64,000 nucleotides of DNA, from the NCBI GenBank assembly GCA_963834385.1, contig CAWIBO010000002.1, forward strand, positions 1,283,967-1,347,966. Direction: 5' to 3'. The notes under the pieces were generated by a model. The model was not told the origin of the DNA and searched no databases. It saw only the letters and a list, made by a program, of their open reading frames with translations. The position numbers were made by a program, and so were the translations under genes. Positions 48,136-64,000 of the stretch are shown piece by piece. This DNA is from an uncultured Verrucomicrobiae bacterium. Lineage in GTDB: Bacteria > Verrucomicrobiota > Verrucomicrobiia > Chthoniobacterales > UBA10450. The stretch's first letter is position 1. Each line of letters begins with the position of its first letter.

Positions 48136-51100
48136 ATGAACACGATGTCAGAACTGAAAACGCCGTCGGAAGCCGCCCCGGATCCTGCGGCCACGGATGA
48201 GACGAGCGAGAACGCGCGCCATGGCGTGGCGAAACGGCGCGACGCGAGCGAACCAGACGCGGTGGTTGGTCTCGGCGCCTCTGCGGGAGGTGTCGCGGCG
48301 CTACAGCAGTTTTTCAGCGAGATCCCCGCGAAAACGGGCGTGGCCTTCGTCGTGGTGATGCATCTCTCTCCCGAGCACGAGAGCAACCTGGCTGCCGTCA
48401 TCCAGCAAAAGACCGCCCTGCCGGTCCTGCAGGTAAACGGGCCCGTCCGGGTGAACCCGGATCATGTCTATGTGATTCCGCCCAGCAAGCAGATGACGTT
48501 CGCCGAAAGCACGCTGCACCTCGTCGAGCCGCAGCAATCAATCGGGCGCCGGGTGACGATCGATTTGTTTTTGCGCACGCTGGCCCAGGCCTACGGGCAG
48601 CGGGCGGTCGGGATCATTCTCTCCGGGACCGATGCGGACGGCGCGATCGGGATCAAGCATGTGCGGGCGCAGGGCGGGGTGACCATGGCGCAGGACCCCG
48701 GGGAAGCGGAGCACAGCAGCATGCCTCTTTCCGCCATCAGCACCGGGATGGTGGACTGGGTGCTGCCAGTGGCGGCGATGCCGCAGAAGGTGGTTGAGTT
48801 TGTCGAGAACGAGCGGCCGGATGCAGTTGCCCCCGGAGGTTCGGGATGCGCCGGAGGCGAACTGTAAAGGTGAGCGACGCGCCCGGGGGCGAAACGATCT
48901 CAACGGAAACGCGGGAGTCGGAGGATGAATCCGCGCTGGTGGAGGTACTGGCGCACCTGCGCGGCCAGACCGGTCACGACTTTGCGCATTACAAGCGGGC
49001 GACGGTGCTGCGACGGGTGGCCCGGCGGTTGCAGGTCAATTCGCTGGAAACCATCCCGCAGTATCTCGGTTTTTTGCGGCGGCACCCGGCGGAGGCCCAG
49101 GCGCTTTTACAGGATCTCCTGATTGGCGTGACCCATTTTTTCCGGGATCAGGAATCCTTTGCGGCGGTGGAAGCCCATATGCCGCAACTCTTCGCCGGGC
49201 GGGAGAAAAAGGATGACCTGCGGATCTGGGTGCCGGGGTGCGCGACCGGCGAGGAGGCCTACTCCCTGGCCATGCTTCTCTGCGAACAGGCGGAGCGCCT
49301 GCCGGCGCCGCCTTCGCTCCAGGTTTTCGCGAGCGACATTGACGAACAATCGGTGCACGAGGCGCGCCAGGGTTTTTATCCCTCCACCATCGAGGCGGAC
49401 GTCTCGCCGGCGCGGCTCGAGCGTTTTTTCCGCAAGGATCACGGCCGCTACCGCGTGCGCAAGGAGCTGCGCGAGAAGGTTCTTTTCGCGGTGCATAACC
49501 TCCTGAGCGACGCCCCGTTTTCGCGGATCGACCTTGTCTCCTGCCGCAACCTCCTCATCTACCTGACGCCGGAGGCGCAGGAGAGAATCTTCGACATTTT
49601 TCATTTTGCGCTGCGCCCCGGCGGGCTGCTGTTCATGGGCGGCTCCGAGGGCGCGGGCATCGAAGCATTCTTTGCTCCGGTCGATTCGAAGCACCGGCTT
49701 TACGTCCGGCGTTCGGTCCCGCGGCCGGCCTGGCGGGTGCCGATCCTGCCGCTGGCGCCCCGGCGGCCGACACCGGTCTCACGCGGGATCATGGGCAGTC
49801 GCATCCTGTCGCCGCTCGTCCAGGCGGGCTTGAAAGAGGCGGGCATCGGCAGACCCCGGGACCCATCACGGGGGCCACGAGCGCCGCGCCGCGCTCTTCG
49901 GCGAACTGCACCTGAAGCTCCTCGAGCAATATGCCCCGCCCTCCGCGGTCGTGAACGAGGAGCACGACATCATTCATCTCTCCGAGAAAGCGGGGCACTA
50001 CCTCCAGTTCTCGGCCGGAGAACCCTCGGCCAATATTCTCTCTGTGATTCATCCGGCGTTGCGGGTGGAATTGCGCACTGCGCTTTTCCGGGCGTCACAG
50101 GGCGGCGAGGAAACGGTTTCAGGCGCCCATTGCACAGTCGAGCTCGGAGGCACCACGGAAGACGTGGCCCTGCAGGTCCGGCGCCTGCACGGCATCTCCT
50201 CGGAGGTATTTTTTCTCATCCTTTTCGTCCGGCGCGAGGGCGCAGCGGAGACCCCGCCGAAATCGGCGCAGGGCGTGACCGGCGATCTCGAGGAAGAGAT
50301 TCTCTTCCTGAAGAATCAGTTGAGCAGCACGATCGAGCAAAGCGACGCCTCGAGCGAGGAGTTACGGGCCTCGAACGAGGAGCTCCAGGCCATGAACGAG
50401 GAGATGCGTTCGGCGGCGGAGGAGCTGGAAACGAGCAAGGAGGAGCTGCAATCGGTAAACGAGGAGTTGCTCACCGTGAACCAGGAGCTGAAGAGCAGCG
50501 TGGAGGAACTCAGCCGGGCCAATACCGACCTGAGCAACCTGATGGCGGCCACCGATATCGGGACCATTTTTCTCGATCGGACCCTGCGCATCCAGCGGTT
50601 CACGCCGAGCGCGCAGCGTATCTTCAACCTGCTTCCTTCTGATCTGGGCCGGCCGCTGGCCGATATCACGCACAAACTGCAGTACGAGGGATTGATCGAG
50701 GAGGCGTCCCACGTCCTCCAGGACCTGGGCACGGTCGAGCGCGAGGTGCCCATGGGCGAGAAAAGCTGGTTCCTGACCCGCCTGGCTCCCTATCGCACGA
50801 GCGAGGATCGCATCATGGGAGTGGTGGTGACCTTTGTGGATATTTCCCGTCGCAAACAGGCGGAGGAAGAGGTGCAGGGGACGCTTTCCCTGATCCAGCT
50901 TGCGACCGACGCCGCCCGGGCTGGATGGGGTTCATGGGAGGTCGGGACTGGCAAGGCCACCTGGGACGCGCGGGCCCGGCAAATCATCGGATTCGAATCA
51001 GATGAGAAGGCATCCCGGGCCGAGGGGTGGCGCGAGCGGATCGTGGCCGAGGATCGGGCAAAAGTGGAACAGGAGATGACGAAATCGGCCGAGGAGAAAC

Positions 51101-52734
51101 GGGATTTCAGCCTGGAATTCCGTATTCTTCGTGACCGGGGGGACGTCCGCACAGTGCGCATCACCGGGCGTTTTCAATATGATGTGGAGGGACAGGTCCA
51201 ACGGGGCACCGGCCTGGTGGTCGATTACACCGAGCAGCGGGAATTGGAGGAGCGGTTGCGCTGGCTTGCGATCAGCATGGATTCATCCCACGACGCGATC
51301 ACGACCTTCACGCCCGAGGGCAGGATCTTGAGCTGGAACCATGGCGCGCGGCTGCTTTACGGCCGGAGCAGCGAGGAGGCGCTGGGACAGGACATTTCGT
51401 CGGTGTTACCGGCGGAAAGCGCGCGGGAGACGCGTGCGATTTTTGCGCGGCTGCGCGAAGGGGAACCGGTTTCGCAGCTGCAACTGGAGCTGCCCGGCCC
51501 GAAACGGGGCCGGGTTGTGGCCTCGCTGACCTTTTCGCCCGTCCGTTCGCCGGGGGGCGATGTCATCGGCGTGGTGGCCATCGGCCAGGATGTTACCTCG
51601 ATGAAGGAGGCGGAAAAGCAGGTGCGCGAGAGCCGGGAACGTTACCGCCTGCTGGTCGAGGGCGCGGCGGATTACGCCATGTTTCTGATGGATTCCTCCG
51701 GGATCATCACGCACTGGAGCACCGGCGCGCAGAAAATTTTCGGGTGGAGCCCGGAGGAAGCGGTGGGGCAGTCGGGCGGAATTATTTTCACGGCGGAAGA
51801 CCGGGCCAATGGGGAGGTGGACAAGGAAGTGGAGGTGGCCCGCGCCAAAGGGGCCGCCTCGGACCGGCGCTGGCATGTGCGCAAGGACGGTTCGCAGCTC
51901 TGGGTGGATGGAATCATGCGCCGGTTGGACGATGAGAAAAGCGGCGAGCTTCGCGGCTTTGCCAAGATTTGCCGTGATGCGACCGAATATCGCCGCAGCC
52001 AGGACGCGTTGCGGCACGCCCACGAGGAACTCGAGCTCCGGGTGCGGGAACGGACGGCGGAACTCCAGGCGATGAACGATACACTCGAGGCGGAGATGGA
52101 ACGGCGGCAAAGCCTCGAGCGCGAGATTTTGCAGGTCACGGAACGGGAGCGGGCCCGGATCAGCCAGGACCTGCACGACAGTCTTTGCCAGGAGCTGACG
52201 GCCACGGCGTTTCTCTTGAAGCTCAGCGCCAAGCGGGTGGCGAAGGAGGACGTCTCAAGCGCCGAGGCTTTCCGGGAGGCGGCGGAGACGGTGAACCGCA
52301 ATGCCGGCCTGGCACGTGAGCTGGCCCGGGGCCTGCACCCCATGGTGCTGGGCCCGGGCGGTCTGCCTTCCGCCTTGAAGGAGCTTTGTTCGCGGCTGGG
52401 CGGTTCCGTTAACTGCAGTTGCGAATGTCCGCGCTCCGTCCGGATCGCGAGCCCGGATATCGCCTTGAACCTCTACCGGATTGCGCAGGAGGCCGTGGCC
52501 AACGCCATTAAACACAGCAAGGCCACCGGCATCACGCTTTCACTTAAACGCGATAAAAAGGACCTGGTTCTCACGGTCAGGGACAACGGGACGGGGCTTG
52601 GACGGAAAAAAGGGAGGGGAATGGGCATCCACTTGATGCAGTACCGTGCGAACGTTTCAGGCGGGACGCTCGAAGTTTCGTCGCAACGAAACAAGGGCAC
52701 GACCGTCACATGCCGGGTTCCATTAAAAAGATAG
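48136..52734 (+). CDS. CheB-CheR-PAS-histidine kinase fusion (about 1530 aa), broken by three apparent +1 frameshifts
   Basis: CheB GASAGG/VMHL/DADG; CheR GCATGEEAYS/CRNLLIY; EELQSVNEEL coiled coil; PAS domains; HisKA_3 QDLHD; shifts near 48817, 48865, 49860. Confidence 0.85.
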
Positions 52735-53414
52735 CTAACGGAGAGAAAAGCGAGACCGCGGAGAAGATCCGCCGGATCCTGGTCGTGGATGACCACCCGC
52801 TTTTCCGCAAAGGCGTGGTGCAGCTTCTGAACGACGAGCCGGATCTCCAGGTAGAGGGGGAAGCGGCGAGTAATAACGAGGCCCTCGGGGCCATTCGTCG
52901 CGAGCCTTTTGACCTGGCCGTGGTCGATATCGGCCTGGAAGGGAGCACCAACGGAATCGAGTTGACCAAATCGATCCGCGCGGAGAAGCCGGATCTCCCC
53001 GTCCTCATCCTTTCCATGCACGACGAGGCGCTTTTCGCCGAGCGGGCCCTGCGCGCGGGCGCCCGCGGTTATGTCATGAAACGCGAGGCGCTCGACCAGT
53101 TTATCGTGGCGGTTCGGACCGTCCTGCGGGGCGACATCTTCATCAGCGAAGAGATGTCGCGGCGGATGGTATTCGCCCACATCCAGGGCGGGACCGAGCC
53201 GCGGGCGCCGATCGACCGCCTGACCGACCGCGAGCTGGAAGTGCTCCAGTTGATCGGGAAAGGACGCGAGGTGAAGGAGATCGCGAAACAGTTGAACCTG
53301 AGCGCTAAGACGGTGGAAGCGCACCGGGCCCACATCAAGGAGAAGCTCAACCTGGCCAACGCGCGCCAGGTCGCGCGCTTCGCCATGGAATGGGTCAGCC
53401 AGAGCGAATCGTAA
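52710..53414 (+). CDS. NarL/LuxR-family response regulator
   Basis: VVDDHPLF, VVDI, LTDRELEVL, SAKTVEAHR. Confidence 0.92.
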   Translation: MPGSIKKIANGEKSETAEKIRRILVVDDHPLFRKGVVQLLNDEPDLQVEGEAASNNEALGAIRREPFDLAVVDIGLEGSTNGIELTKSIRAEKPDLPVLILSMHDEALFAERALRAGARGYVMKREALDQFIVAVRTVLRGDIFISEEMSRRMVFAHIQGGTEPRAPIDRLTDRELEVLQLIGKGREVKEIAKQLNLSAKTVEAHRAHIKEKLNLANARQVARFAMEWVSQSES

Positions 53415-53776: not shown

Positions 53777-54430
53777 ATGAAACGCTCTCTGCCTCTGCTC
53801 ATCGTTATCGTGGTTGCGCTGGCGGCTTCGGCGGGCGCCTTCCTTCTTTACCAGGAGATGAAGCCCGCAGTTCTTACCTCCACCGGAAACGCCGCGGAGC
53901 CGGCGGCGGCCGAGCCTCATGCCCGGGGCCCCAAGACCGCGCGAGTGACTCTCGAGGAGTTCGCCGATTTCCAATGCCCGCCGTGTGGCAAGCTTTCGCT
54001 CCTGTTGAAGGGGATGCTGAACGAGTTCCCGGGCGATTTGCGCGTTGTCTTTCGCCATTTCCCGCTCCGGGGCCACCAGCACGCGAAGGAAGCCGCCGCC
54101 GCGACCGAAGCGGCCGGGCTGCAGGGAAAATTCTGGGAGATGCACGATCTGCTTTACCGCGAACAGGCTCTCTGGAGCCGGCAGCCTGAGGTGGGCGCGC
54201 TCTTTGAGAACTACGCCGGACAGCTTGGGCTCGACCTGGAAAAATTCCGGGAGGATCGCGCCAGCGCCGCGGTCCTGGAGCGGGTGGCGGCCGACCAAAA
54301 ATACGGGACCGGCCTGGGGGTGAACAGCACCCCGACTGTTTTCGTGAACGGGCAGCAGGTTCCCGCCAAGGGGTTGAACACGGAGAGCGTGCGCAGGGCG
54401 ATTCGCGCCGCGCTGACGCCGACGCCATGA
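53777..54430 (+). CDS. DsbA-family thioredoxin-fold oxidoreductase
   Basis: N-terminal TM, EFADFQCPPC, RHFPL, GVNSTPT. Confidence 0.9.
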   Translation: MKRSLPLLIVIVVALAASAGAFLLYQEMKPAVLTSTGNAAEPAAAEPHARGPKTARVTLEEFADFQCPPCGKLSLLLKGMLNEFPGDLRVVFRHFPLRGHQHAKEAAAATEAAGLQGKFWEMHDLLYREQALWSRQPEVGALFENYAGQLGLDLEKFREDRASAAVLERVAADQKYGTGLGVNSTPTVFVNGQQVPAKGLNTESVRRAIRAALTPTP

Positions 54431-54900
54431 GCCAGACGCGCCGCCAAAAAGAAAGGGCCGCGGCGGTGACCGCCGGCGGCTCCCGCTTCAGAACGGTTGT
54501 TTTCACCGCGATGGCTCTCCTCGCCGTGGTGGGGTTGGCTGATGCGATCTTCCTGACGGTGGCCCATTTCACCGGGGCCACCGCGGTTTGCGGGGGCTCG
54601 AGCGGATGTTCCGCCGTCCTGACCAGCCAGTACGGGAAGATCGGGCCGGTTCCGCTGGCGGCTTTCGGGGTCGCGGGCTATTTCACCGTCTTTGCTCTGG
54701 CGACGTTCTCCGCTTTTGGAAGGGTTGCGGCCGAGAAACTTTTGCGACCGCTGGTCTGGCTGATGTTCGGCGGGACTCTCTGGCTGTTGTTTGTGCAGGC
54801 GGTGCTGTTGAAATCGTACTGCCGTTACTGTCTGCTCTCGGCCGCGATCACGTTTCTGATTGCCGGTCTGCTGGTGGCCCTGCCGCGCCGCGAGTCCTGA
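54427..54900 (+). CDS. Vitamin K epoxide reductase (VKOR) family protein
   Basis: CGGSSGC loop, VLTSQY, CRYC in TM; coupled to dsbA-like gene. Confidence 0.9.
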   Translation: MSQTRRQKERAAAVTAGGSRFRTVVFTAMALLAVVGLADAIFLTVAHFTGATAVCGGSSGCSAVLTSQYGKIGPVPLAAFGVAGYFTVFALATFSAFGRVAAEKLLRPLVWLMFGGTLWLLFVQAVLLKSYCRYCLLSAAITFLIAGLLVALPRRES

Positions 54901-55197: not shown

Positions 55198-58100
55198 ATG
55201 TTTCATCTCTTCGCTTCCACCGTGACGCGCCTCGGCGCCTCTCTCGCGATCGCCCTTCTGTTCTGTTGTTTCATCGTGGGCAACGCGCTTGGCCAGGCCA
55301 ACTGTTCCGCCCCGGGGATTCAGGTTCTGGCTGATCCGGCCGGCGATCACAACGCCGCCGCGGGCACCTCGAAGCAGGATGTCCTCTCCGTCTCGATTGC
55401 CGAACCCGGCTCTCTGAGCAGCACCCTGGTCTTCACCATGAAGGTTGCGGATTTGAGCGCGCCGCTCCCGATTAACGCCTTTTGGAAAATCTACTTTAAC
55501 GTGGGAGCGACGGTGCATTTCGTGGAGATGTCGACCGATGAGCTGGGCGTGGTGAGTTACAACGAGGGGACCTCGGCGACGAACCTGGACACAACCGAAG
55601 GCCCGATCTCCGGCAGTTATACCTCCGATGGGACTATCACGCTGTTTGCTTCCGTCTCCGCCGTGGGAAACCCCGCGGTGGGCTCGCAACTGACCGCAAT
55701 CTCGGCCCGGACACAGACGCTGATCGGCGTGCTGGGCACCGGCGGGCTTGATCACGATTGATAACAGCAACAACCAGACGGGAACGAAGGCTTACACGCT
55801 GATTGGCAACGCGGCCTGCACCGGCAGTACGCCGACCCCGACTCCGACGGCTACGCCCACCCCGACGCCTCCCGCAGGCGGCAGTGCCTGCACCCTGAAT
55901 CCCGCCGGCCCGAATTGTGTCTGGGACGGCACGGCCCCCGGTGGTTCGTCGCCTGAAGGCGAGGACACCTGCGTGGAAGGCGTGAACTGCCAGACCTTCC
56001 TGCTGACTCTCTCCGGCACGCCGGCTGACTGGATCGGAAAGAAGGCCCGCATCACGATCAGCGCGAACGATGCCAACAACGATTACGACGTTTACATCCA
56101 CAAGGGCCCAAGCAATACCGGGCCGATCGTGGGCTCCGGGGGGGCTCCGGGTACACCGCCGGAGGTGGTCGAGCTCGACCCAAACAATTCGAGCATCGGC
56201 ACCGGCGTGTTCGCGGTCCGGGTGGTTTATTGGCTGACGCCGACCGGCGTGACCGATCAGTATCATGCAGTGGCCGAGGCGGTCGGCGCGCCGACCCCGA
56301 CGCCCACGCCGAGTGTGACCCCGACGGCGACGCCGACTCCCGGAAACGCAGGGCAGCCGCGCTTCTTTAACCACTACACGGGCCAGGGCGTCGCGGACGA
56401 TGCCGGTGAGCCGACCCTTGGGGTGAACTGGAACACTGAGAACGTGAACCGCGATGCGTCCGTCGTCGCGCCTCCCGGAGGTCGGACCACCGGCCAGACG
56501 TTCAAAAATTACACCCGCGCCAGTGACGGAACGTTGACCGAGAACCAGACTTTCAACGGCGGAACGACCAATTACTACGGCGGATTCCTCGCCTACATGC
56601 TCCGCTACAACTTCGATGACTGCGAGTCGCCCGCGAACACGCTTATCGACCAGATGCCGATCACCCTGCCGGCAGCTCCGCGTGTCTACGGCGATCCGAT
56701 TCTTTTCGTTGATCGCATCACCGGCCGGACCTTCGTCTCGCAGTTGCTCGGCCTGACGCCCGGCGGCAGCACCATGGAATACACCGATAACGATGGGGAA
56801 ACCTTCCTGCCGAGCGAGGGCGGAGCGCCGTCGCAGATCGATCACCAGACCATCGGCGGCGGTCCGTTCCGCCCGATCGGGCCGATCACGCCGACGGGCC
56901 CGTATCCGCATGCCGTTTACTACGCGTCCCAGAGCGTGGCCACCGCCACCTCGCAGTTGAGCGTGGACGGCGGCATCACCTTCCCCGCGCAGACGCCGAT
57001 GTTTACCATCGCCGACTGCGCCGGTCTTCACGGGCACCTCAAGACGGGTGACAACGGCATCGCCTACGTCCCGGACAAGGCCTGCGCTGCCGCCGGCGTT
57101 CCCTTCGTCTTCGGCGGCGAAGCCTCCGTGGTGGTCTCCGAGGACAACGGCATCACCTGGGATGTTCGTCCGGCCACCGGCGCGCGCAGTGACGCCGGGG
57201 TGGATGATCCCTCCGTGGGCGTTTCCATGTGCCCTGACCCGACGGATTGCCCGGACAAGGACGCCCGCAGCAACACCATTTATCTCGGGTTCCTCTACTC
57301 GGACGATCCGGCCACACCGGGCGTGATTGAGCGGGCTCGCCCTGGCATCATCAAGTCGACCGATGGCGGTATGACCTGGTCGGCGCCGGTGGACATCGGT
57401 GCGATCTCCGGGGTGAAGCATGCCGCCTTCCCGGCGGTGGTTGCGGGCGACCCGGATCGCGCAGCCTTCGCCTTCTTCGGGACCACCACCGAAGCATCCA
57501 ACTTCGATCAAGCCGAGTTTGCCGGTGTCTGGTATCTCTACCTCGCGACCACTTTTGATGGAGGCGCGACCTGGGATGTGCAGAACCTGACCCCGAACGA
57601 TCCGATCCAGCGGGGCGGTATCTGCGGCGACGGCACCTGCCGCAACCTGCTCGACTTCTTTGATGCCGAGATCGACAAGCGCGGCCGCGTCCTGCTGGCC
57701 GGTGAGGACGGTTGCATCGGGGGCTGCGTCAACGGCGGGCCCAACTCCTTCACGGCCAAGGCGTTTGTCACCCGGCAATCGGGCGGCCGCCGGATGTTCG
57801 CGGCCTTTGACGGCGAGACCGACACGCCGGGCAACCCGACCGTTCCGGGAGCGCCGGCGGTTTCGGGCCAGCTTGATGCCGGCAACACCAAGGTGACCCT
57901 CGACTGGCCGGTGCCGGATAATGGCGGCTCACCCATCACGGCCTACCGGATCTACCGGTCCTACAACCAGGGCGGGCCTTACAACGATGCCTCTCTGATC
58001 GCGACGGTGACCAGTCCCGGCTTCATGGACATCACTTTCGATCCTGCGGAGACGGACAAGTTCTATATCGTCACCGCGGTAAATGCGGAGGGTGAAAGCC

Positions 58101-59308
58101 CCTTCTGCCGCGAGTTCGCACCAGTGGTTTCGCTGGTTGACCCGATGCCATGGTGCAGCCTGCCCGGCGTCCTGGTCACCAACGATGTCCTGCCCAACGG
58201 CGCGGACAATGACTCGGGCCAGAACACGCCGGTCGATCCGCGCGTCAACGCCAAGGTTCTCCATATTGCAGAGCCCTTCGTGGACGCAACGACTGAGCAA
58301 TTCTTCTTCACCCTCCAGGTTGGCCCTTCGGCGGAAAACTCGGCTCCGCCGAACAGCCAGTGGTTCATCATCTGGAACCGGCAGATGCCTGATTCCAATT
58401 ATGACCGGGCCTACGTCGCCATGCGGACTGATGCGAGCGGTAATCCGACCTTTGAGTATGGCAAATTCGGCGTGCCAATCCCGCTCGACCCCACGAACCC
58501 TGTTATTCCGACGGGCACGGAGAATACGCCGGTGAGGGAGGGTGACGCCGATGCTGGCAGCTTCTATAACCCGCTCACCGGGGTGATCCGGATCGTGCTC
58601 GCCAAGAGCAAGCTGCGCGCGTTTGAAGGAGCCGCCACATATCAGGCCGACTCCGACCTCGCCGGGACCAACGTTCGGACTTACTTCAACCGTCCGGATC
58701 CGGGTCAGCGTTCGCAGAACAATGCCTCCGACATCACGGGCGACGGCACCTACACGATCAAGGGGAACGTCTCCTGCGCGATGCCGCCGGATCTGGTGAG
58801 CGCCTTCTCGCGCAAGACCCATGGCACGGCCGGGGCCTTCGATGTCAAGCTGGCCCCGCTCGTTCCCGCCACGGCCGTGGGCGTGGAAAGCCGGAACAAG
58901 GGTGACGACAGCCACCAGGTGGTATTTGTCTTCTCAAGCCCGGTCAGCTTCACCGGTGCCACCGTGACGCCGGGAAGCGGCGGGACAGCGGCCACGCCCA
59001 CAACGAGCACAAACGGAAGCGAGGTTCTGGTGAACTTCACTGCGTCGAATATGCAGACGGTCACGGTGACTCTTCAGGGCGTTTCCGCCGGGGGTGTGGC
59101 CGCAGATATTGCCGTGCCGATGGGAATTCTGCAGGGCGACGTCAACGGCACGCGCACCGTCTCGGGCGCTGACGTGAACGCGGTCAAGGCTCAGCAGAGC
59201 ATGCCCGTCGTCCGCGACAACTTCCTTACCGACGTCAATGCGACCGGAACGATCACGGGCGCCGATGTGAATGCAACCAAGAGCAAGCAGAGCACCGCAC
59301 TTCCCTAA
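55198..59308 (+). CDS. Large secreted Asp-box/BNR (sialidase-like propeller) protein with PPC-like, FN3 and C-terminal dockerin-like domains (about 1370 aa; +1 frameshift near 55748)
   Basis: Signal peptide; PT linkers; DYDVYI; Asp boxes TDNDGETF, SVDGGITF, SEDNGITW, STDGGMTW, TFDGGATW; FN3 W..P.DNGGSPITAY..AVNAEGES; GDVNGTRTVSGAD/TDVNATGTITGAD. Confidence 0.85.
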
Positions 59309-59343
59309 CCAACCCAAAACCCAACCCAAATAGAAAAGCAGCC

Positions 59344-59961
59344 ATGATAAAAATGAAATACATCTACTCCATTGCCGCCGCGCTGATCATCTCGGCCGGA
59401 TCGGCTCTTGCCGACGTCAACCTCGTCTTCGGTTCGCCGAGCGCCTCGGTGGCGCCTGGTGGAACCTTTGACGTGACTCTTAACCTGCAGGTCACCGGAG
59501 CGGAACAGGTCAACGGCGTGAACTACTTCCTGCAGGAGCTCTCCTCCGCGGGATTCTTCATCGTCAGCCGTACCATCACCGGTAGCCTCTTCGACGATCC
59601 CTATTTTTCCAACGCGACCGTGGCGACGTCGCCCGGCAATGCGCTTGATCCAATCAACAATTCGGACCTGGGCGCCACCACCGATACCGGCGTCTTCGCG
59701 GGTGCCGGCAGCCACTTCCTGGCCACCTACACCATTGGCGTGGGCAGCGGCGTTACACCCGGCAGCTTCACTCTGAGCACGACCGACACCACCGGCATCG
59801 GCTGGAGCGGCACGGGCGGTGACCCCAGCGAGGAGAACCCTTTCGACAGTCACGCCAGCATGAGCGTGACCGTGGTGCCGGAGCCGGCCACCTGGTCGCT
59901 CCTGGCCCTCGGCGGCCTTGGCACCATCGGCATGACGGTGCTGCGGCGTCGCCGCGCCTAG
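59344..59961 (+). CDS. PEP-CTERM protein with cohesin-like beta-sandwich
   Basis: Signal peptide ALA; VAPGGTFDVTLNL..NGVNYFL..LATYTI; VPEPATWSLLALGGLG..RRRRA. Confidence 0.85.
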   Translation: MIKMKYIYSIAAALIISAGSALADVNLVFGSPSASVAPGGTFDVTLNLQVTGAEQVNGVNYFLQELSSAGFFIVSRTITGSLFDDPYFSNATVATSPGNALDPINNSDLGATTDTGVFAGAGSHFLATYTIGVGSGVTPGSFTLSTTDTTGIGWSGTGGDPSEENPFDSHASMSVTVVPEPATWSLLALGGLGTIGMTVLRRRRA

Positions 59962-59986
59962 TCCTCGTTCGCCGGATGCTTTACAG

Positions 59987-60022
59987 CGGGCTGATCGGTG
60001 ATCCGGTCAGCCCGTTTTGTTT
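59987..60022 (+). terminator. Rho-independent terminator
   Basis: CGGGCTGATCGG-TGAT-CCGGTCAGCCCG followed by TTTTGTTT. Confidence 0.75.
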
Positions 60023-61260: not shown

Positions 61261-64000
61261 ATGAAAAAAGCCACCCAGGATAAAGCCTTCTCCCGCACCC
61301 GCCTCCTCGTCGCCCTCGCGCTGATGATGAGCAGCAGTGCTTTTGTTTACATGGCCATCGCCGCCAATCCTTCGTCCGGAACGATCACGCCGGCCGGGCC
61401 CACCCTCACCTGGGTGGGAACAGGTAACGGCCTTCCGCCCGCCGCGGGCGGCCGGGCGGATTGCATCGAGGGCCAGAATTGCGACTCCTACACACTGACG
61501 ATTTCGGGCAACCCGGCGGACTGGGTGGGCAAACAGGTAAAAGTCAGGATCAACAACACCCTGCCCAGCACGGACTACGATCTCTATGTCCTGAAAGGCT
61601 CGCTCAACGGCGCGGTGGTGGGATCCGATGGCCGCCCGCCGAGCACCTTCGAGGAAGTGGTGCTTGATCCGAACAGCCCGAGCATCGGGACGGGCGTGTT
61701 TGTGGTGCACGTCGTCTACTTCGCGGTCCCCCCGGGCGACCAGTATAACGGTGAGATTTCGATTTTGACTGGCGGCGTGATCCCGCCGGTTCCCGCCCCG
61801 CAGGCGAGTGGCGTTGCTCCCCGTTTCCAGGTGCACACCCCTCCGCCCGCGGGCGCAAACACCCTGGGAATCGACGCGGCCGAACCGTCGATTGGGGTGA
61901 ACTGGGACAGCGAAACCGGCACCAACGGCGGTCGGGCCATGTATATCGCCCTGCTGGAGACACTGCGGATCACTTTTGACGACACCTGCCCGTCGTCGCC
62001 CTCGGCCCTCTGGGAGGATGTCTCCTTTGCCGGCACCTCGGCGATCACGTTCGACCCCATTCTTTTCACCGACCACGGGTATCCGGGGGGGTCGGGCACC
62101 GGGAGAACGTTTGTTTCTCAACTGGTCTTTCCGGCAGGATCAATCGCGAGTGCCTCCGCCTATACGGATGATGATGGAACCACCTGGTTGCCGAGCACGG
62201 GCGCCGGGCCGGGGTCCGGTATCGATCACCAGACGATTGGCGGCGGCGGTCCTTATGCCGCTCCGGTTCCGCTTAACCCGGCTTATCCCAATCCTCTCTA
62301 CTATTGCGGCCAACTCCCGAATGCCACCTGCGCGCTGAGCGTTGACGGCGGCCAGAGTTATGGCCCGGCCATTCCGGTGGACGCTGGCGGCGAATGCGGC
62401 GGCTTGCACGGCCACATCAAAGTCGGTGTGGACGGCAGCGCCTATCTTCCGAACAAAGGATGTGGTTCCGGACAAGGCGTCATCGTGAGCCATGATAACG
62501 GGCTGACCTGGGATGTCCGGACCGTGCCGGGCAGCGCGGCGGGCGAGAGCGACCCCGCGGTTGGGATTGGGCGCGGCGACGAAACCGGCGGCAAGGGTCG
62601 TGTTTATCTTGGCTATGCCCATGGCGATTCCAAGGCGGTGATCACGGTTTCAGACGATCGCGGCTTGACCTGGAGCACACCTTACGATGTCGGGGCCAAG
62701 TTCGGCGTGAATGGCGTGGCTTTCCCGGCGGTGGTGGCCGGTGATGATGATCGCGCCGCGTTTGCCTTCTACGGCACGCCCACGATCGGCAGTGTGCAGG
62801 GGGCGAAGTTTGCCGGCGTCTGGCACCTTTACGTCGCCTACACTTATGATGGTGGAGCCAGCTGGCATACGGTGGACGTCACACCCAATGATCCGATGCA
62901 GCGCGGCTGCATCTGGCTGCAAGGCGGCTCAAACATCTGCCGCAACATGCTCGACTTCATGGGCGCAGATGTGGATGCGCGCGGCCGTTTCCTGGTGGGC
63001 TACAACGATGGGTGCGCGGGCGCAGAATGTTCGCAGGCCACCCCTGGCGCGGTGGGTAATTCCTACACGGCACTCACAGCCATCGCTCGTCAGTCCGGCG
63101 GCAAGGGCCTTTATGCCGCGCACGACGCGCTTTTCCCTGATGCGGCCGCAGGTGCCGGGTGCTCCCTATCTGACCGCGCGTCGCAACGGCGTGAACTCGT
63201 ATGTGCAGTGGTCGGCCTCGAACGACGGCGGCTCACCCATTACCGGTTTTCGCCTGGAAAGCTCGACCAGCCCGGCAGGTCCGTTCTCGACCGTCGCCAA
63301 CGTGGGCGCGTCGCAGATGCGTTACATCGACACGGTCGACATCTCCGAGCCGATTGTTTATTACCGCGTGGTCGCAATCAACGCCGTCGGCGAATCCTGC
63401 GGAGGCCTTGCCATTCCAGCGCCTTATAACGGCGATTCCTCGGCTCCGACCGGTTTCCGGATCGCGAACGATCCCGCGGGCGACCAAAAAGATGCGCCGG
63501 CTGATCCCGATCTCGATGTGCAGACCCTCGCCATCCATGAGCCGGCCACCGGCCCGCACGCTGGGAAGATGGTCTTCCTGATGAAGCTGGCCGGACCGCC
63601 CAGCGGCAACGACAAGCGCTGGCGCATCATCTGGGATTCGCCGAATGCGGTTGATTTCACCCAGGATCCTCCGGCCAACGTCGGACAATTCTATGTCGGC
63701 ATGGTTACGAACGAGGCGGGGCAGACCAGCTTCGATTACGGGACGGTGGAGACCGGCGTGGTCGGGCTCGTCCTGGGCGTGCCGGAGACCCGGCCCGCGG
63801 GTGTGCCCGACGCGGGCATCATCGGAACGGACGGCTTGATCACGATCGTCGTCTCCAAGGACAAGATCGGCAGCATTAACGTCGGTGATTTGATGGGCAA
63901 CTTCTCGGTGCGCACCTATCGCACACCGGGGAACAATTACGTCCGGTCGACCGACGCCATTGATGCCACCACGAATGCCGATGCGAACGACCTGGCGAGC
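61261..64000 (+). CDS. Second large secreted Asp-box/BNR protein, paralog of 55198..59308 (partial; +1 frameshift near 63146)
   Basis: Signal peptide; DYDLYV; Asp boxes; IDHQTIGGG, CRNMLDF, RQSGG; shifted frame continues PQVPGAP..FN3..DPAGDQ open to window end. Confidence 0.85.

Follow-up and report, generated by a model that had tools for sequence, protein, structure and literature searches.

A PEP-CTERM cohesin-fold protein as candidate cell-envelope socket for dockerin-tagged secreted proteins in Chthoniobacterales

Most of what is known of cohesin-dockerin display comes from the cell walls of Gram-positive bacteria. In C. thermocellum, OlpA, OlpC and SdbA carry an SLH anchor and bind dockerin-ended enzymes directly at the cell surface. 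OlpA and OlpC (type I single cohesins; 3UL4, 4DH2) and SdbA with the CipA X-dockerin (2B59) share with the locus described here the combination of a single cohesin and dockerin-ended proteins. The partner of ScaE from R. flavefaciens is likewise an X-dockerin, consisting of an Ig-like module and a dockerin. As for PEP-CTERM proteins, we know of no function for most of them.

ScaE itself (2ZF9) joins one cohesin to a C-terminal sorting signal and catches dockerin-ended proteins, as described in the available portion of PMC11557425, and this arrangement recurs here. Non-cellulosomal systems comprise the C. perfringens GH33/GH84 cohesins (2VO8, 2W1N) and those of Archaeoglobus fulgidus (2XDH), together with, going by the accessible parts of the respective reports, the 'planctosome' (PMC6461901), the scaffoldin with CTD of Ca. 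Stygibacter (PMC8542988) and the ANME proteins (PMC9012536). They share with the present system a non-cellulolytic cargo, often peptidases, and some occur in diderm PVC bacteria. With the PEP-CTERM/exosortase system (Haft 2006, PMC1569441; excerpts) it has in common the canonical signal, exosortases in the genome and a frequent occurrence in Verrucomicrobia.

Organization of the locus and its cargo protein

The window, the whole stretch of 64,000 nucleotides that was analyzed, contains a candidate two-gene unit with the following features.

55198..59308, + strand: cargo gene for a large secreted protein of ~1,370 aa, interrupted at 55750, where the assembly likely has one base too many
55294..55810, + strand: beta-rich domain at the N-terminus; a homologous domain lies further on in this protein, at ~58154-58783
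56348..57820, + strand: BNR/Asp-box beta-propeller (from AF2, Foldseek and conservation)
58784..59134, + strand: SRKxHG beta-rich module, Ig-like by pattern, directly N-terminal to the dockerin
59135..59305, + strand: C-terminal dockerin, two repeats of a 12-residue Ca-loop plus helix, with G10, A11 and K17 in both
59344..59412, + strand: Sec-type signal peptide of the anchor, ending in ALA (assigned by eye)
59413..59874, + strand: predicted cohesin-fold domain (from AF2, Foldseek and VIA), of a family missed by Pfam Cohesin
59875..59961, + strand: PEP-CTERM sorting signal with VPEP, TM helix and RRRR (VPEP-RRRR at 59875-59958), matching PF07589 and TIGR02595
59985..60026, + strand: terminator-like hairpin of 14 pairs with a T tail (stem 59985-60016), closing the candidate unit

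An earlier, sequence-only reading had proposed an SRKTHG module, two DxNxxxxxxxxD loops and, after a gap of 35 nt, a 205-aa protein ending in VPEP-TM-RRRR, and every one of these elements was found in place. The SRKTHG motif occupies 58808-58825, dockerin loop 1 (DVNGTRTVSGADVNAVK) 59138-59188 and loop 2 (DVNATGTITGADVNATK) 59231-59281; the stop codon of the cargo gene at 59306-59308 is followed after 35 nt by the 205-aa ORF at 59344-59961. The same reading treated 55198..59308 as one gene, which in the window is not one open frame: the ATG frame starting at 55198 runs into a stop at 55761, and the C-terminal frame (55748-59308) begins before 55748. A single short-read contig (n=1, depth 5.1) from a public run, possibly of the same or a related sample, covers 55705-55932 without one base at 55750, and in the homologs P0229, P0268, P0197 and P0223 the N-terminal domain fronts one continuous polypeptide. 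For these two reasons the frame break is most likely an assembly error and the cargo a single gene, with a signal peptide at 55198-55293 (by eye).

The terminator scan found no site between the cargo gene and the 205-aa gene. As its total of 7 sites, against 7.0 in shuffles, lies at chance level, only the long 14-pair stem counts, and this stem with its T tail at 59985-60016 bears out the shared terminator proposed earlier. In the surroundings, a paralog of the propeller cargo at 61261-64000 is frameshifted (61261-63429; 62711-end) and cut by the contig end, so that its tail region lies outside the sequence. A gene spread over three frames, probably by further assembly indels, is located at 48136-52734 and is followed by a response regulator (52710-53414); from its sequence pattern we take it to be CheB/CheR-PAS-histidine-kinase-like. 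Judging by their motifs, the genes at 53777-54900 presumably encode a DsbA-like thioredoxin with CPPC and a membrane protein of the VKOR type; they lie just 5' of the cargo gene, whose Cys-rich product may owe its disulfides to them.

The N-terminal domain of the cargo matches its own C-frame residues 803-905 (BLASTP, E=0.002) and homologs with E down to 1e-40. The propeller, with the invariant motifs DHQT and GLHGH and an AF2 model of pLDDT 87.4, has 2,213 homologs at E<=1e-30. The close homologs with a name, P0157 (68% identity), L179 and L181-L183, belong to Chthoniobacterales, which suggests a Verrucomicrobium of this order as host; a dockerin is carried by 38 of 119 propeller-cargo homologs. 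Its Foldseek matches are sialidases and lectins at TMq of 0.24-0.45 only, a remote likeness. GH33 sialidases are six-blade propellers with a FRIP motif and an Arg triad. The FRIP motif is absent from both the propeller sequence and the family consensus, and Foldseek gave a TMq of 0.3-0.4; the label 'sialidase' was not taken up. The BNR propeller is likely a hydrolase or lectin, and 'enzyme', as the earlier reading calls the cargo, is a putative designation.

Tagged proteins elsewhere include S8, M12A and M12B peptidases, Kelch, WD40-like and BNR propellers, LamG, RHS and pectate-lyase-like proteins. No cellulase (GH5/9/48) was present among 41 tagged proteins scanned from the window's own genome (G000), G001 and G020, a sample that includes 20 of 59 copies of G001 and 18 of 31 of G020. 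What persists of the term 'cellulosome-like' is the logic of assembly.

The dockerin tail and the candidate cohesin-fold anchor

According to the available text of PMC6780208, a dockerin repeat has 22 residues with Ca-ligands at positions 1, 3, 5, 9 and 12, the reputed recognition sites are positions 10, 11, 17, 18 and 22, and similarity of the two repeats is taken to mean dual-mode binding. A profile of 30 family dockerin copies (A2) matched the dockerin of C. thermocellum Xyn10B in the PDB (2CCL_B, E=3.9e-10), with dockerin-bearing chains, 2B59_B among them, filling the list, and 29 of the 30 members match PF00404 at E<=0.1. The cargo C-terminus is therefore, by its sequence, a dockerin. The earlier call stands through the family profile and not through the window copy alone, which at 18.3 bits remains under the Pfam cut-off of 22.9; in full-length form, 24 of the 41 tagged proteins exceed that cut-off at E<=1e-5.

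For comparison, 100 copies from 11 genomes were picked as best matches to the window module, a biased choice, and 96 of them could be parsed (4 unparsed). D1 and D12 are invariant in 96/96, positions 3, 5 and 9 are mostly N, D, S or T, and position 17 is K or R throughout. In the window dockerin, Ca-ligand position 5 is Thr in either loop, a residue seen in one of 96 relatives per repeat. The symmetry noted before, GA/GA at positions 10/11 and K/K at 17, is correct, from which we infer that the dockerin may bind in dual mode.

The preceding SRKxHG module is invariant at S9, H13, G14, D20, E35, R37 and Q91 in 38 copies and gave no significant match to a Pfam or PDB family. Its position is analogous to that of the X module in X-dockerin dyads. 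It was found in 3 of 121 phylum-wide genomes; outside the family, the Ig plus dockerin tail also occurs in L184-L188, MAG contigs of Casimicrobiaceae, Burkholderiales and Phycisphaerae.

The tail of the anchor exceeds the cut-offs of both PEP-CTERM models (PF07589, 24.6 bits vs 20.7; TIGR02595, 25.4 vs 16). Cohesin homology of the domain in front of it did not emerge by sequence: phmmer against the PDB found none, PF00963 (Pfam Cohesin) matched 0 of 15 family members, and profile A1 hit no cohesin in the PDB, its top match being an unrelated GH at 0.011. Profile A3 yielded weak matches to R. flavefaciens cohesins (E 0.09-0.15), and an Atlas lead pointed to a cluster with 13% PF00963 at a score of 0.84. 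As evidenced by the structure searches, the AF2 model (pLDDT 94.7, alignment of 146 rows) resembles cohesins: ranks 1-8 in Foldseek (TMq up to 0.68) and ranks 1-16 in VIA (Z 13.1-10.2, rmsd 2.6-3.2) are all cohesins, the best VIA match being 2VO8 (Z 13.1, rmsd 2.7, 130 residues aligned). Note that the first non-cohesin, CLIPPER (9IFR), follows at Z 10.0, just 3 under the best. The model fits the nine-strand jelly-roll beta-sandwich of ~140-155 aa by which cohesins are recognized, and R54, N83, D86-L87-G88 and G118-x-Y120 are conserved in the family. In line with the earlier suggestion of a cohesin-like domain, the predicted structure makes the domain of the 205-aa protein a cohesin-fold module, and of a new family, as sequence methods miss it. 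A complex prediction with cohesin, dockerin and 2 Ca scored 0.21 against a mark of 0.32 and was used neither way.

A profile of 15 sequences retrieved 638 representatives at E<=0.001. All 151 homologs inspected are single-cohesin proteins, with no multi-cohesin scaffoldin among them; 124 bear a PEP-like tail at the C-terminus, and membrane tails of other kinds occur among the rest. In P0081, P0085, P0086, P0107, P0131 and P0139 an acidic linker precedes a Cys-Gly motif, TM helix and basic tail, and VPD-type tails are found in P0015 and P0076; with tails this different, several sorting systems serve the family. Three to five cohesin-family genes per 10-25 kb are clustered in G128:C1:47766-67157, G109:C2:872501-882115 and G096:C11:88354-113470, a dispersed substitute for a multi-cohesin scaffoldin. 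Of the name 'mini-scaffoldin' for the protein in the window only the single-cohesin anchor is retained; 'scaffoldin' was dropped, there being one cohesin in the protein and one in its own genome.

The tails also bear on where the pair would act. It might bind without surface display, the cohesin being released by exosortase into the EPS matrix, or serving as periplasmic chaperone or retention point at which cargo is parked. Such a course would agree with the proposal of Haft 2006 (PMC1569441, in the passages available) that the protein is passed to an unknown nucleophile and built into the exopolysaccharide layer, the fate of cleaved PEP-CTERM proteins being itself a model there, and with three cohesin-family proteins that have no anchor tail at all (L013, L050, L058). 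The alternative membrane tails, in turn, suggest that tethering is the conserved purpose, and secretins are present for export; we judge a pair without display to be improbable.

The genome of the window (89.6% complete) has 4 Ig plus dockerin tails and 1 cohesin, five exosortase matches over the cut-off (PF09721) at 4 gene places, and secretin genes. Among the 11 PEP-CTERM genes listed, the sole cohesin-family gene adjoins a dockerin gene; the PEP-CTERM fragments C3:349002 and C3:349832 matched via their tails only and were rejected as cohesins. The paralog C5:514990 has the same GA/K code, and the dockerin C1:222052 has another one, S10 G11 R17, for which a second, matching cohesin was not found in this 89.6% complete genome. 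At G000:C1:219861-224952 (L273) two tagged genes stand in tandem, one of them encoding an S8 subtilase whose tail is frameshifted; the dockerin that is intact there reads S10 G11 R17.

Co-occurrence, linkage and co-variation of the two modules

The SRKxHG-Ig plus dockerin tail was found in 103 of 151 family genomes (a set that includes the unpublished G159), with up to 61 copies per genome (59-61 in G001 and G012). Members of the cohesin family were detected in 54 of the 151, all 54 of which also have the tail, and in none of the 48 tail-less genomes, counts in which related genomes are not independent. Where a single pair of enzyme and anchor had been envisaged, the picture is one of a many-to-one, family-wide system.

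With profile A1, 49 of the 103 tail-bearing genomes gave no cohesin match. This favors the reading that the tail acts without a cohesin, as a signal for secretion or surface retention, for instance as a T2SS recognition tag or by binding lipid or polysaccharide in a Ca2+-dependent way, and that the PEP-CTERM protein with the cohesin fold is a surface protein transferred along with it that has a different ligand. G003 (96% complete, 11 tags) lacks a cohesin even with a deeper profile, the Ig part has invariant residues of its own, and cohesin-like folds, e.g. CLIPPER, are known from Gram-negative adhesins. The deeper profile, applied to five tail-rich genomes apparently devoid of cohesins, nevertheless revealed full-length members in two, so that 2/5 of the 'missing' cases were sensitivity misses; in G003, G080 and G161 there was still no full-length cohesin, and Pfam Cohesin had no match in any of the five. 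The newly found PEP-tailed cohesins (G148, G017) both lie directly behind dockerin genes.

Gene pairing is kept in about half of the relatives, as the earlier reading would have it: in 15 of 29 of their best cohesin loci (16/30 with the window itself) a same-strand dockerin ORF ends no more than 706 nt upstream, and in a further 2 of the 30 one lies within 1.3 kb. As a control, non-cohesin PEP-CTERM genes of four tag-rich genomes, collected with TIGR02595, which missed some genes, adjoin a dockerin in 2 of 53 cases. Divergent cohesin-family PEP-CTERM genes of the same sample (G012, G020, G137) do so in 1 of 8, and the pooled figures are 16/37 for cohesin genes vs 2/53 for other PEP-CTERM genes. 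A related-locus search from a single protein returned 14 loci; one holds a cohesin fusion, and in none of them does a separate cohesin gene lie within 1.5 kb. Cohesin and Ig-dockerin are fused in one chain in L011, P0007, P0032 and L188, from G001, G069 and a Phycisphaerae contig. L011 (G001:C4) consists of cohesin and Ig-dockerin only, and L062 (G069:C18)/P0032 strings Ig-dockerin, cohesin, a repeat domain and a second Ig-dockerin into one adaptor-like chain; such fusions could serve for chaining or branching.

A mirror test on 17 cognate cohesin-dockerin pairs excluded L047, whose module is truncated at the end of the locus, L051, the second of two cohesins in tandem, and L293, as G148 has no RpoB. 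The divergence of cohesins correlated with that of dockerins (rho 0.57), in contrast to cohesin-RpoB (0.04) and dockerin-RpoB (-0.06). Given RpoB and the Ig module, the partial cohesin-dockerin correlation is 0.53 (0/5,000 permutations); given dockerin and RpoB, that of cohesin with Ig is 0.10 (p=0.23). Together with the empty tail-less genomes, the fusions and the sensitivity misses, a cohesin divergence that follows the dockerin and not the Ig part or RpoB makes a cohesin-independent tail unlikely in our view. That an ordinary PEP-CTERM beta-sandwich merely happens to stand beside an unrelated EF-hand-like tail would agree with a window dockerin under the Pfam cut-off and a cohesin unmatched at the sequence level; fold searches, adjacency, co-occurrence, fusions and the mirror test largely refute such a coincidence, and we consider it barely credible.

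The mirror signal could in part reflect co-transfer of adjacent DNA. In the 96 dockerins, position 11 is the same in both repeats of 0.56 of the molecules vs 0.23 across genomes, and its identity is 0.54 within vs 0.25 between genomes. Within-genome permutation gave p=0.004 for position 11 (uncorrected, 20 positions) and p=0.14, not significant, for position 10; similarity at the genome level extends to the non-recognition positions 5, 9, 13 and 20. R17 occurs in at least one repeat in 7/8 copies of G005, and K17 in the second repeat in 19/19 parsed copies of G130 and G137, which belong to the same genus. By genome, the codes read GA/K in G000, AG/K in G001, xG/R in G005 and SG/R in G006. A code common to mostly unlinked dockerin copies counts against co-transfer as the full account, and this comparison of 96 dockerins supports a specificity code that is unlike ST/KR, as had been suggested.

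Proposed mechanism and comparison with known display systems

Considering dockerin homology, the predicted cohesin fold, the PEP-CTERM signal, the exosortase and secretin genes, linkage, co-occurrence and correlated divergence, we are fairly confident that the PEP-CTERM cohesin acts as a cell-envelope socket for secreted SRKxHG-Ig plus dockerin proteins, the upstream propeller being one likely client. Anchor and cargo would both be exported by Sec. Exosortase would then cut the PEP tail and fix the cohesin to a component of the envelope, if the Haft 2006 model applies. Ca2+ would fold the dockerin, which may dock on the cohesin sheet via the helix residues 10/11/17/18, with two alternative orientations being probable. 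A genome with one or a few anchor genes could in this way present a variable assortment of peptidases, propellers and adhesin-like proteins, 1 to ~60 in number, under a code that would be specific for the genome.

This is likely an undescribed route by which double-membraned bacteria hold dozens of exchangeable proteins at the cell surface. In its widest form the idea is that SRKxHG-Ig-dockerin is a family-wide second-tier sorting tag and one exosortase-sorted cohesin the universal socket in a Chthoniobacterales family for up to ~60 secreted proteins; socket and code would switch jointly between genomes, even within a genus, keeping enzymes private in soil, and PEP-CTERM proteins would gain their first defined adaptor role. 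We see the arguments for and against this extended version as evenly balanced.

Such a system would account for the many dockerin-tagged proteins secreted in an uncultured Verrucomicrobial family. With a soluble cohesin of 155 aa and a dockerin of 65 aa, binding can be assayed simply, a dockerin-fused reporter could trace the final location of exosortase substrates, and new, possibly orthogonal cohesin-dockerin codes may be of use for enzyme display in Gram-negative hosts.

Non-cellulosomal cohesins, some of them in diderms, are the subject of PMC11557425, PMC6461901, PMC8542988, PMC6487960, PMC6780208, PMC9012536 and the bioRxiv reports 2023.11.21.568195 and 2023.06.07.544157, and in the portions of these available to us no PEP-CTERM anchor is met. 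Our literature search, in which a mention within subscription papers or supplements could be missed, returned no report on cohesin, dockerin and PEP-CTERM together, and nothing on PEP-CTERM with cohesin, Udaeobacter with dockerin, or Chthoniobacterales with PEP-CTERM. The non-cellulosomal systems differ in their anchors, which are a lamin-tail domain, a CTD, an S-layer or none, and in the accessible text they come without PEP-CTERM or the SRKxHG-dockerin tag. Unlike typical PEP-CTERM proteins, the anchor has an assignable fold and a likely partner and would be an adaptor for signal-less proteins. OlpA, OlpC and SdbA differ by their SLH anchor and ST/KR code from the PEP-CTERM anchor and small-residue/K or xG/R codes found here, and identity is 8-16%, with VIA giving Z 12.0 and 11.6 against 3UL4 and 4DH2. 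ScaE, for its part, relies on LPXTG and sortase instead of PEP-CTERM and exosortase in a diderm, and in fold (Z 9.0) it is more distant than type I and C. perfringens cohesins (Z 13). The ScaE system further has a multi-cohesin scaffoldin and cellulases, neither of which turned up here, among 151 cohesin homologs and 41 tagged proteins respectively. By analogy, the pair described here would thus stand outside the cellulosomes, which combine these two components, and would work in the manner of anchoring by ScaE or OlpA.
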